DNA of 64,000 bases, from the NCBI GenBank assembly GCA_964016885.1, contig OZ024744.1, forward strand, positions 29,760,001-29,824,000. Reading direction: 5' to 3'. Of the stretch, positions 32,764-58,762 are shown in pieces. The position numbers were made by a program, and so were the translations under genes. The notes beneath the pieces are model-generated. The model had not been told where the DNA came from, did no database searches, and worked only from the letters and a program-made list of their open reading frames with translations. The stretch comes from Eledone cirrhosa (lineage: Eukaryota). Numbering within the stretch: the stretch's first letter is position 1; the number at the start of each line of letters is the position of its first letter.

Positions 32764-33290
32764 TGAGAAGAATTGAGTACTGCGTGGTTGCACATGGGTT
32801 ACATATGAATAAGATTAGTCCTTCATCAGTGATTTTCCAACCTTCATTGGTATTTCATCGCTTTAAAAATCATATACCTCTGGTTGGTGCGAGCAATAAC
32901 TAAATAAAGTTATTTGGACAAGTAAAATAGCGTGAAGCGAGCGAGACATGAAAACAAACTCACTCTCTGCTTCTCCCCTCTCACTTCCTCCCGTTTGGCC
33001 TGTGTGGGGTCCTTTCTCACTCACACCTCACCCATGTCGGATGGTCTGTATATCTCTCTCGCCCATGAAATTCACCCAGCTTAAACTGAATAGATATCCT
33101 GTACTTGTCTCTTCCTATCTTTCCGTTGCCATACCATCTTTGTTTGTTGACATGTCTCGCTCGCTTCACGCTATTTTACTTGTCCCAATAACTTTATTTA
33201 GTTATTGCTCGCACCAACCAGAGGTATATGATTTTTAAAGCGATGAAATACCAATAATGAAGGTTGGAAGATCACTGATGAAGGACTAAT
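32764..33290. mobile_element. Inverted-repeat insertion (arms 32814-32950 / 33151-33290) between TA tracts; likely PLE-derived
   Basis: ~137-bp arms with few mismatches and one 3-bp indel. The arm contains CTGATGAAGGAC (5' half of an HHR core) but no matching GAAA half. Confidence 0.65.
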
Positions 33291-33705
33291 TATATATATA
33301 TATATATATATATATATATATATATATATATTATATTATATTTTGAGAATAAACTCTCAGTCATTTACAATAATTAAGCTCCAGGAATCATGGCTGTTGC
33401 CAATATAATATTGTCTTTATTGACTTATATCGAGACAGACAAATTGTATTCACTTTTATTAGTTTATTTCATTAATAGCTAACTTTGTCTGTTGCAATGT
33501 AAACACATTTCGTGTTTATCGTACACTTTAAATGTATATATATATATATGCATTAGTGCGACAGAAACGCGAGTGCGGGAACCACTATAGGCACCCGTTT
33601 TACGTGTGTTGTGTTGAAGTAAATAACTGTGTATACTCTGGGAACGTATCTTACATCACCCATGGAGTACGCTGAGATACAACCGGTACTGGCATTGATA
33701 AATAT

Positions 33706-33888
33706 GCTGGCAGTATCGGTAGAGGGTCAGACGCCATGCTTTCCAGCATATAGTTACGTCCCTTTACGATCTGTGTTCAAATTCCGCCAAGGTTAACTTT
33801 GCCTTTCATCCTTACGGGGTCGGTAAAATAAAGTAGCAGTAATACACTGAAATAATTGCTAGCCTTGTGCCAAAAGTAGAAACAATTA
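33706..33888 (+). mobile_element. tRNA-derived SINE (same family as 31850)
   Basis: GTTCAAATTCCGCC..GGTTAACTTTGCCTTTCATCCTTACGGGGTCG core; tail GCCTTGTGCCAAAAGTAGAAACAATTA. Confidence 0.87.
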
Positions 33889-33999
33889 TATATATATATG
33901 TGTGTGTGTATATATATATGTATGTGTGTATATATATATATATATAGATATAGGGGTATGATTCTCGCTTTGGTATATATATTTGGTATATATATGTAT

Positions 34000-34545
34000 G
34001 TCAGGTCACCAGTTGGTGCTACTGGTAACATGTATCCCAGTACAACCTGTCTCATGGTCGGGTCGTTGGCGACTAAACTGGCAACCCCACCTGCAGGACT
34101 AAAAACAAAACCTGTCAAAGGGCAAAGGAGCTCTTAAGAGTCAATGGCCATCCAAAATCACTGGGAGAGATGACCCCTTAGCCTTTGTCAAGGCAGAATT
34201 CTAGGAGAAGGAAAACTCTGATATAACACCTGCAACCCTGATGGTTTCCAATGATGTTGACTTGTTCTTCTTTTTGGTAAATATCATCTTGGTTAAGAGA
34301 GTGGGACTGGCTTTGTGCAGTGCCTTTGCTCACTATAAAAGCTTCACGGCACAGGCATTGCTTGATATCTGGAGATCTCTCTGCACTTGTCGTCACATGG
34401 TGCCATGGGCCCAGCACTATGTGTCAATAATTGTCACAAGTGTAGTGTTTGTACCAGAGTTTTCATGTCGCTGGCTGGACTAAAAAGTCACACTTGTTCA
34501 GCGCATCAGTAGTGCGCCGTACTCGAAAACGTGTTGGCAGCCACC
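34000..34545 (+). mobile_element. ~0.5-kb dispersed non-coding repeat, copy 1 (retroelement-UTR-like)
   Basis: High identity to 54070-54624 in opposite orientation. Both copies are flanked by TA-rich tracts. Strand assignment is tentative. Confidence 0.8.
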
Positions 34546-34828
34546 ATATATATATATATATATATATATATATATATATATATATATATATATATATATA
34601 TATATATATATATATATATATATATATATATAACATATTATATATATAACATATATATTATATATATATTTATATAACATATATATTATGTGCATATATA
34701 TATATAGAAGTGGTTACACAGCAGTTAGTTCAGCATACCGAGAACAATTGTTTCATATATATATATATATATATATAGAGAGAGAGAGAGAGAGAGATGT
34801 ATACATATATATATATACCTATATATGA

Positions 34829-56718: not shown

Positions 56719-57430
56719 ATATATATATATATATATATAATTCGTAGGAAAATGGGAAACTCGGCAAAAGGCCACCGAAGTGGCGTTAGGTAAAACATTT
56801 GACTGAAAGTATTGCGAAGGATAGACGGCTCGTAACAATGGAGTGGAGGAATAAATATCTTCGTTGGTATAATGTTTGTGTTGGGACAGGTAAAAGAGAG
56901 AGAGAGAGAGAGAGAGAGAGAGAGAGAGAGAGAGAGAGAGAGAGAGAGAGAGAGAGAGAGAGAGAGAGAGAGAGAGAAATGAGGTGCCTCCACACGACCT
57001 CAAGTCATCGCAAGAAAGGGATAAGAATGGCATTGTAAGTGGAAGAGGCCTGTAGAAGGGAGAGGGGAAGAAAGAATGCAACAGTGAGAGGAGAGAGACA
57101 AAGAAAAGGAACAGGAGGAGAGAAGGGAGAGAAGAACGAAAGAAAAGGGAATAGAGGAAGAGGCACGAAAAAGCCAACTCACCTTATATATGCAAATGGA
57201 AGTAAAGCATATTCGAAGCTCGAGCCGCAGCTAAGCCGACGAATGCATTCAGAAGTGCAGCCAAGCACTCGGCAAGGTACAAAACCTCAGAGTAATAACA
57301 GTTTAAAGGGCTTTGCAAATTGAAGATATCGACCGTTAATTCAGCCGCGGGGTCCGTAGCAACGAAAGAACTGACTCGCGAGAAAAAATACATATACCTA
57401 TACACACACATATATATATATATATATATA

Positions 57431-57577
57431 TAACAAACCTGGACCATCACTTCGAAATTTTGCAATATCTCAGCTAGGTTTCTGTAAATCCGAAATCAAC
57501 AAAATCCGCTTTCGGTGTATGCAAGTTGTATATATATATATAACTTGCATACACCGAAAGCGGATTTTGTTGATTTG
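57431..57577. mobile_element. Short fold-back insertion (35-bp arms 57493-57527 / 57542-57576) related to the Naiad 3' end
   Basis: Arm contains CACCGAAAGCGGATTTT; the Naiad 3' region has CACCGAAAGTGGATTTT (40135-40151). TA-flanked. Confidence 0.7.
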
Positions 57578-57650
57578 TATATATAAATAAATGGAAAAAC
57601 TGAAACGAAATTTCATTTCTCACTCACTTTTAGTACGGCTGTTACTTAAA

Positions 57651-57957
57651 TATAAGTATGTACACGTACATACATATATGTATACAGACGTACAGTAGTA
57701 TGTATATATATACATACATGCACACACATATATATATATATGTACGTATGGGTTTACCGAACATTTATTATAATGCTCGGTTTGTTTGTAAACAAACATC
57801 GCGAATTAAGCCGTAGTGTCTAGCAAACCGAACATTATAATAAGTGTTCGGTAAACCCATACGTACATATATATATATATGTGTGCATGTATGTATATAT
57901 ATATACATACTACTGTACGTCTGTATACATATATGTATGTACGTATACATACTTATA
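57651..57957. mobile_element. Fold-back insertion (~134-bp arms 57651-57784 / 57824-57957), same family as 46383-46560
   Basis: Complementary arms; direct homology to the 46.4-kb copy. Confidence 0.8.
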
Positions 57958-57971
57958 TATATATATATATA

Positions 57972-58762
57972 TATAAAGAATTAATATATCTACCGACATA
58001 TGCATACAGATGCATACCTATGCTAGCAGATATATATGTTTTGTCTTAGTAACTTTGTGGTTCTATGCAGGGGATTTCAGAACAATTATATGAAAGACGT
58101 AAATAAGAAAGTTATGAAAATTGACTTACTAAAATTTCACTCCAACTAATTAGTTTCTGTAAGGGGATAAATATAGTCACGTAATAACTTTAGTAAGTAA
58201 GTCAATTTTCATAACTTTCTTATTTACGTCTTTCATATAATTGTTCTGCATTCCCCTGCATAGAACCACAAAGTTACTAAGACAAAACATATATATCTGC
58301 TAGCATAGGTATGCATCTGTATACATATGTCGGTAGATATATTAATTCTTTATAATTAACTCCAAATTATTTGTTGAGCAAAATTTGCCAAATTACTACT
58401 GTGACTGATAGTAGTAGCTAGGCTCTGTCTTAATAGCACCCCCACTCCAAGCAGGTTAACCTCAGTGTCACGTGATTGATTCTTTTGAATTTGCCACTTG
58501 ACCAAGAAGGCAGTGAATTTTTTCAATGGCTTGGAATCTAACCCCGCTCGCTTTTTTCCATCCACTGAAATATTTTTATATAAGTTCCCAGTATCCCCGC
58601 ATTGCCTGGAAACTTAGCTGAGAATAGACTCCCTGATGACGTAAGGCTTCTCTATAGTTATTACGTAACTATATTTATCCCCTTACAGAAACTAATTAGT
58701 TGGAGTGAAATTTTAGTAAGTAAGTCAATTTTCATAACTTTCTTATTTACGTCTTTCATATA
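57972..58762. mobile_element. Non-autonomous HHR element: ~523-bp monomer with terminal direct repeat (58189-58239 = 58712-58762), preceded by an inverted partial copy (57972-58189)
   Basis: Direct and inverted repeats are visible; HHR at 58628-58706; no ORF; (TA)n on both sides. Confidence 0.82.
58628..58706 (+). ncRNA. Type I hammerhead ribozyme
   Basis: ACTCC-CTGATGA-C-GTAAGG...ATAGTTA/TAACTAT...CCTTAC-A-GAAA-C-TAATTA-G-TT-GGAGT; 12-nt palindrome AACTAATTAGTT; GUU triplet. Confidence 0.87.

Follow-up and report, generated by a model that had tools for sequence, protein, structure and literature searches.

The window analysed here is the stretch of 64,000 nucleotides between positions 29,760,001 and 29,824,000 of contig OZ024744.1 (forward strand) of Eledone cirrhosa (assembly GCA_964016885.1). 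It holds eight inverted-repeat insertions, termed fold-backs and numbered E1 to E8 from left to right, which pair, head to head, the 5'-truncated 3' regions of Hydra-type Penelope-like elements (PLEs) and of units lacking an open reading frame (ORF), each fold-back being likely formed in one event by two-ended priming on a single ribonucleoprotein (RNP) at two fixed sites. Arms were detected in the window by self-BLAST and then mapped onto genuine family copies; in the genome searches, the best 40 candidates per family were scored and the best 30 loci analysed. In addition, an unbiased sample of 0.8 Mb was formed by 80 evenly spaced 10-kb stretches, with the four largest chromosomes oversampled. 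Throughout, A and B denote the proximal and distal fixed 3' ends of a family, respectively.

Inverted arms were found at all eight window sites, with identities over whole high-scoring segment pairs (HSPs) of 86-100%. TA tracts flank all eight, at a chance level of 1.2% for a random position to fall within 8 nt of such a tract, in agreement with an earlier note on this DNA that had described the insertions as bounded by (TA)n or TA-rich sequence. All eight inverted repeats are real and six fit the model cleanly: each of E1, E3, E4, E5, E7 and E8 unites two copies of the same family at their 5' ends, with site A terminating one copy and site B the other.

The same orientation prevails genome-wide, since 94 of 98 same-family pairs on opposite strands lie head-to-head, the remaining four being tail-to-tail and located between neighbouring insertions. 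In the unbiased sample, 174 inverted HSPs condense into 73 TA-anchored events, which occur in 39 of the 80 stretches and cover 45 kb of 800 kb. Hammerhead ribozyme (HHR) motifs located in arms point outward in 21 of 21 events; two further events carry an HHR in the spacer only and 50 have none detected. The joining of arms at their 5' ends, with both 3' ends running into (TA)n, and the routine production of palindromes, both proposed in the earlier note, are thereby upheld. Extrapolation to the genome of 3.0 Gb gives 273,000 fold-backs (Poisson range 214,000-344,000), or 235,000 after chromosome weighting; the real uncertainty exceeds the Poisson range because the events cluster. Two candidate counter-examples were set aside. 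The inward HHR at locus L203, called with the strict descriptor, belongs to an inverted repeat without a TA anchor and is hence uncounted, and the converging pair at 52878-53068 and 54818-55009 of the window proved to be two unconnected copies (89% alike) that are kept apart by other elements and by TA tracts. They are members of a further family with an HHR, whose 3' end is fixed at TA/CA repeats and in which few adjacent fold-backs were seen among 20 loci.

In the families of E1, E3, E4, E5, E7 and E8, and in that of the Hydra element of the window, copies end at the two fixed 3' sites, which are 45-150 nt apart with a short TA-like word at each; E2b and E6 were excluded from this scoring. 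Among 56 unbiased pairs, a count that leaves out window copies and the E3 and E4 loci found by tail-bearing queries, 43 are AB, two AA, three BB and eight unclassified, so that 43 of the 48 classifiable pairs are AB (p=1.4e-8 against 50%). Out of sample, all seven complete small fold-backs of the window Hydra family are also AB, a test in which the question was each time whether the partner arm was A because the query contained the B end; both arms halt at the 5' stem of the HHR in five of the seven. Asymmetry is also evident at the ends of the 73 unbiased events, of which 59 are one-sided (the other end lies 16-250 nt off the TA tract), three symmetric and 11 unassigned. The longer arm is not fixed: in 73 AB pairs with clean junctions it is A in 21 and B in 19, and the arms are equal in 33, mostly of E4. 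In 13 fold-backs the tail is present on the shorter arm and missing from the longer one. At L161, E4 is inverted without duplication, the two arms having no sequence in common. This inversion (L325:7250-8300) is inserted in the internal TA tract of an E6 unit, with both flanks intact; the internal tract of the E6 unit thus itself serves as an insertion target.

The link to PLEs stems from the families to which the arms belong. Genome searches identified all eight arm families as dispersed repeats, and the arms of E2b, E3 and E4 derive from the 3' regions of Hydra-type PLEs. The E3 tail continues into a Hydra-type ORF in three of the best 30 loci; at L333, an insertion of 8 kb in head-to-head arrangement contains an open frame of 738 aa; for E2b, a Hydra ORF lies upstream at L334-L336. 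At L197, from the random sample, an inverted E4 arm, a 5'-truncated reverse transcriptase-endonuclease (RT-EN) ORF with one stop, a 3' untranslated region (3'UTR) and a B end follow one another, with a TA tract on each side. These continuations sustain the PLE link of the earlier note for the E2b, E3 and E4 families. The other families form tandem units of ~509 (E1), ~1137 (E5), ~640 (E6), ~428 (E7) and ~523 nt (E8); by descriptor, the ORF-less units of E5, E7 and E8 each carry a type I HHR. The partial tandem or pseudo-long terminal repeat (pLTR) arrangement recurs at window 34829-46314, in E8 and at L323, L338, L339 and L340.

The window itself contains a Hydra-type PLE arranged as a partial tandem (34829..46314, +), composed of a 5'-truncated copy (34829-40245) and a 6.07-kb unit that includes a 3'UTR of 3.5 kb and ends in (TA)n. 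Its intact ORF (40400..42841, +) encodes 813 aa with an RT followed by a C-terminal GIY-YIG-type domain, to which Pfam assigned no family; alignment against the published description locates RWR, DKT, CxCx5C, CxxC and CxH motifs. Three Hydra-type ORFs align at 45% identity. As regards the CCHH motif, absence of which characterises the Hydra clade, the GIY-YIG core contains one Cys in the L333 and L197 ORFs and two in the window ORF. The earlier note had named this intact element as the candidate driver of the eight fold-backs, a role not borne out, as neither self-BLAST nor family mapping gave a DNA match to any of E1-E8. The window Hydra family does form A/B fold-backs at other genomic loci and is very young, the best 40 scored matches all being 100% identical. 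A tandem of four identical Hydra units of 6.06 kb occurs elsewhere (L347-L350; G000 C2, 170.43-170.45 Mb), and this family also supplies several head-to-head pairs of multi-kb length. A different PLE lineage is represented by a broken ORF fragment at 53070-53620 (-), which has a CxxxxCxxC linker and a GIY-YIG-like motif and is, we presume from the motif, Neptune-like; related pieces occur at L017, L066 and L147.

HHRs were called with a sequence descriptor and compared with shuffled sequence: the strict version gave 62 matches in 0.8 Mb against one in shuffles, and the relaxed version 107 against three. Outward HHRs lie on both arms of E3 (52394, -; 52579, +) and E5 (55767, -; 56612, +), while E8 has an intact HHR on its right arm at 58633 (+) and one cut in stem II on its left. 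Inspection of full units added HHRs for the families of E4 (U3-A8 core), E7 and E2b (U4C core); the E1 family has a half core only, and no HHR was found in full units of E6. The E4-family HHR at L197:4884-4985 has a U3-A8 core, and other copies have C3 with A8. In the window Hydra element, a type I HHR with a long stem II and a palindromic stem III occupies 45982..46130 (+), with a second copy at 39910. At E<=1, Rfam gave no match to a hammerhead family anywhere in the window, and it identified no ribozyme family in the E4, E6 and E1 units.

The near-strict one-tail rule and the 13 cases with a tail on the short arm favour two-ended priming over self-priming, the published proposal (PMC3846280). 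In the form considered here, which adds an endonuclease step to that proposal, an antisense-RNA hairpin or cDNA snap-back would create a palindromic intermediate that the endonuclease then resolves at A and B. Self-priming would suit the variants common to both arms (in 100 of 361 variant columns, the figure between insertions being 4%), the loops of <=10 nt in 15 of the 73 unbiased events and the frequent ending of both arms at an HHR stem, as in most short E4 fold-backs, where both arms stop in or near the stem II loop. However, the 13 short-arm-only tails would require an intermediate longer than either arm, the arms of L161 lack any common sequence, and extension in vitro is target-primed on both strands (PMC11167929). 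Self-priming is therefore considered unlikely. The earlier note had left the choice between priming by both DNA ends and cDNA snap-back; A/B pairing and the short-arm-only tails speak for the former, and the latter fails as a general route.

Several points weigh against two-ended priming on one RNA, and some of them would be explained by two independent RNPs priming the two ends, in which case the arms would resemble each other because a single source locus dominates in each cell or because gene conversion followed. Shared variants are compatible with two RNAs of one source locus, or with gene conversion, as well. Seven recurrent variants are discordant between arms, five unbiased pairs have AA or BB arms, and two-family joins exist at E2 and L310. 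Nevertheless, independent RNPs predict ~50% AB pairs, and direct joins number 92 within a family against one between two families; this alternative is rated slightly less likely than self-priming. That both arms come from the same template lineage is also indicated by the recurrent variants, which are concordant 39 times and discordant seven times where 12 and 60.5 were expected. Further points against two-ended priming are of a different kind. With the window ORF as the sole protein query, no ORF link emerged for E1, E5, E6, E7 and E8 in the loci examined. For E3 and E4, the choice of query artificially enlarges the class of equal-length arms. A B arm that stops at site A was sought, and only ~5 of 83 E4 B ends lie near A with an inverted A arm, a weak signal with no sharp steric-stop peak. 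Fold support for the HHRs is weak (z -2.4 to 0), and the minimum-energy structures of E3, E5 and E7 do not contain the ribozyme fold; HHR calls rest on the descriptor because Rfam is silent and folding support is weak. Finally, no piece among contigs and restriction site-associated DNA (RAD) reads spans any window fold-back junction by 31 nt per side; empty (TA)n alleles were likewise not seen among the contigs and RAD reads placed on window loci.

The junctions provide additional information. They mostly show an overlap of 1-6 nt (a BLAST estimate, described without a null model), no overlap, or a short filler, some of which are templated. Fillers at L011, L029 and L030 comprise short templated and self-inverted copies, which we take to resemble polymerase-theta-type repair. 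TA-targeting miniature inverted-repeat transposable elements (MITEs) with fixed terminal inverted repeats, or one amplified master palindrome, would match the TA flanks and the clustering of E4 junctions, one of which recurs in five loci; they are very improbable, given that asymmetric ends outnumber symmetric ones by 59 to three, junctions vary between copies and arms run on into RT-EN ORFs. The recurring E4 junction does not represent one amplified palindrome because either the A or the B arm can be the longer one. Accordingly, the earlier description of these fold-backs as retro-derived mimics of MITEs stands. Assembly or long-read hairpin artefacts, which would be consistent with the lack of spanning pieces, are no more credible, as arm identities range over 80-100%, the asymmetric ends are specific to each family, the flanks are unique, and at least 15 different E4-type joints appear in contigs of runs X1/X2 (one sample, possibly the assembly's own data).

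In the preferred account of two-ended priming by one RNP, the PLE RT-EN would cut both strands of (TA)n by GIY-YIG cleavage, and the two DNA 3' ends would prime at A and B on the RNA of a single RNP, a dimeric RT-EN possibly placing one primer per site. Both cDNAs would then stall, in many cases at one shared RNA structure such as an HHR stem, before microhomology-type repair joins their ends. ORF-less units may be trans-mobilised by PLE protein. A bolder generalisation, for which the case is suggestive and falls somewhat short of even, would view PLE integration as obligate asymmetric twin priming, in which one dimeric RT-EN positions both ends of a cut (TA)n at two fixed sites of a single RNA, with ~2x10^5 fold-backs (~5% of the genome) as a major source of palindromes. 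If true, tail, inversion and palindrome would be one signature of asymmetric twin priming, many fold-backs would come from ORF-less hammerhead units, and PLEs would be a potential source of hairpin RNA.

The coordinates of the individual fold-backs are as follows. E1 (32764..33290) derives from a ~510-nt ORF-less tandem unit with only the CTGATGA half of an HHR; its short arm (32764-32959, -) carries a ~48-nt tail and ends at B, and its long arm (32958-33290, +) ends at A. E3 (52295..52767), a Hydra pLTR fold-back, joins an A arm (52295-52485, -) through a 3-nt filler to a B arm (52489-52767, +) with a ~90-nt tail. E4 (55276..55463) is a Hydra 3' end with a perfect centre between the B arm (55276-55406, -) and the A arm (55407-55463, +), both cut within stem II of the U3-A8 HHR variant. 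E5 (55515..56718) belongs to a ~1.14-kb ORF-less unit and consists of a short B arm (55515-55879, -) with a ~145-nt tail and a long A arm (55880-56718, +). E7 (57585..57953), from a ~430-nt HHR tandem unit, has a B arm (57585-57826, -) whose left tail reaches ~57585 and an A arm (57824-57953, +). In E8 (57976..58757), a B arm (57976-58193, -) adjoins a 523-nt HHR unit in partial tandem (58186-58757, +), which terminates at A. The two remaining cases are less regular. E2 (46388..47028) is an atypical composite and two-family chimera of an E7-family 3' fragment (46388-46618, -) and a Hydra 3'UTR piece (46617-46896, -) with an inverted partner at 46895-47028 (+); only 46754-47028 is inverted, and the right arm stops off the usual 3' end of its family. 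E6 (57190..57577), of a ~640-nt tandem unit, is the weakest case: the long arm (57190-57528, -) holds the internal TA tract of the family and is followed by a central (TA)7 and a right arm of only 35 nt (57543-57577, +), polarity being read from the fixed 3' and variable 5' ends of family copies.

Compared with the earlier note, the eight inverted insertions persist, but E2 becomes a composite, the bounds of E6 and E7 shift to the left and E8 resolves into an arm plus a partial tandem. The outward polarity proposed there is confirmed by HHRs at 52.3 and 55.5 kb and only in part at 58.0 kb, where the right arm has a complete HHR and the left arm a cut one; the 'Naiad 3' motif' at 57.4 kb could not be verified, and no HHR was found there.

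The window is satellite to ~30 kb and thereafter rich in transposable elements with numerous TA tracts. The satellite array (1-30120) has a ~39-bp unit and higher-order repeats, and a minisatellite at 47230-49400 has a 15-bp unit; long open frames in the former are repeat artefacts, and those in the latter are GVTLP repeats. At 60964-63689 there are ORFs of a non-LTR retrotransposon, which are broken and include a match to Pfam RVT_1. Two dispersed families resembling short interspersed nuclear elements are present, one at 34090-34596 and 54020-54625 and a second at 31851-31994, 33708-33891, 51434-51621 and 58986-59155; one of the two has a TA-bounded end.

Among known systems, L1 twin priming offers a formal parallel: both ends of the target are primers on a single RNA, and an inversion joined by microhomology results. 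In L1, the upstream position of the second primer varies and the arms show no overlap. Here, in contrast, both sites are fixed near the 3' end, and arms usually duplicate for that reason. The fold-back layout as such is known and published (Arkhipova 2013; Craig 2021); here it occurs in new families, is unusually abundant and has a countable signature that favours two-ended priming. The inverted layout already appears in PMC3846280, PMC8557442 (Fig 2) and PMC4209133. PMC8557442 depicts an inverted 5'-truncated copy with a one-sided tail and (TA)n bias and states the mechanism to be open; PMC3846280 gives head-to-head as the most frequent arrangement; PMC4209133 reports opposite-strand pairs of minimal HHRs 100-700 bp apart and the U3-A8 core in Schistosoma; and inverted pLTRs are mentioned in PMC8969392. 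Published PLE insertions (PMC8557442; PMC3846280) share the head-to-head 5' inverted copy, partial tandems, one-end tail, (TA)n bias and palindromic junctions. Their tails measure 30-40 nt, those found here 45-150 nt; in this genome, moreover, many insertions lack an ORF, counts show a near-strict one-tail pattern, and fold-backs number ~10^5. In the literature outside supplements and most subscription papers, no PLE twin-priming proposal, count of the A/B rule or description of short-arm-only tails was found.

With the Hydra clade, as characterised in section 11 of PMC8557442, the window element has in common the order of RT and EN, DKT, CxCx5C, CxxC/CxH, an HHR and a (TA)n target. It has RWR where the clade has RWK, its class assignment derives from motifs, and its 6.07-kb unit exceeds the <3 kb general for the clade, a tendency rather than a strict criterion. 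Non-LTR retrozymes (PMC7229834; bioRxiv 10.64898/2026.07.22.740005), in their published outline, share ORF-less tandem units with a type I HHR, seen in E5, E7 and E8 at the DNA level; E7 (428) fits their unit size of 150-450 bp, and E1 (509), E8 (523), E6 (~640) and E5 (1137) lie above it. Unlike retrozymes as described there, the ORF-less units integrate with the full PLE signature of two ends and an inverted arm, which ties them to the PLE machinery and suggests that retrozyme-like units can integrate in this manner; the fold-backs likewise suggest that several percent of the genome could be taken for MITEs. The origin of tandem and inverted PLE insertions is posed as an open question in PMC8557442, and the young events of this genome can separate the models. 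A further comparison is with PAc, an Anolis Poseidon element, for which PMC11167929 reports cutting and extension of both strands in vitro, two RT start sites that bound the tail and a predicted dimer. In that study the start sites did not differ between the strands and homology with the target was not seen, whereas here the two ends of an insertion employ different sites, and a short TA-like word marks each of them. For such an in vitro assay, the prediction is that synthesis on the two strands of a given target, top and bottom, begins at distinct fixed sites of the same RNA.

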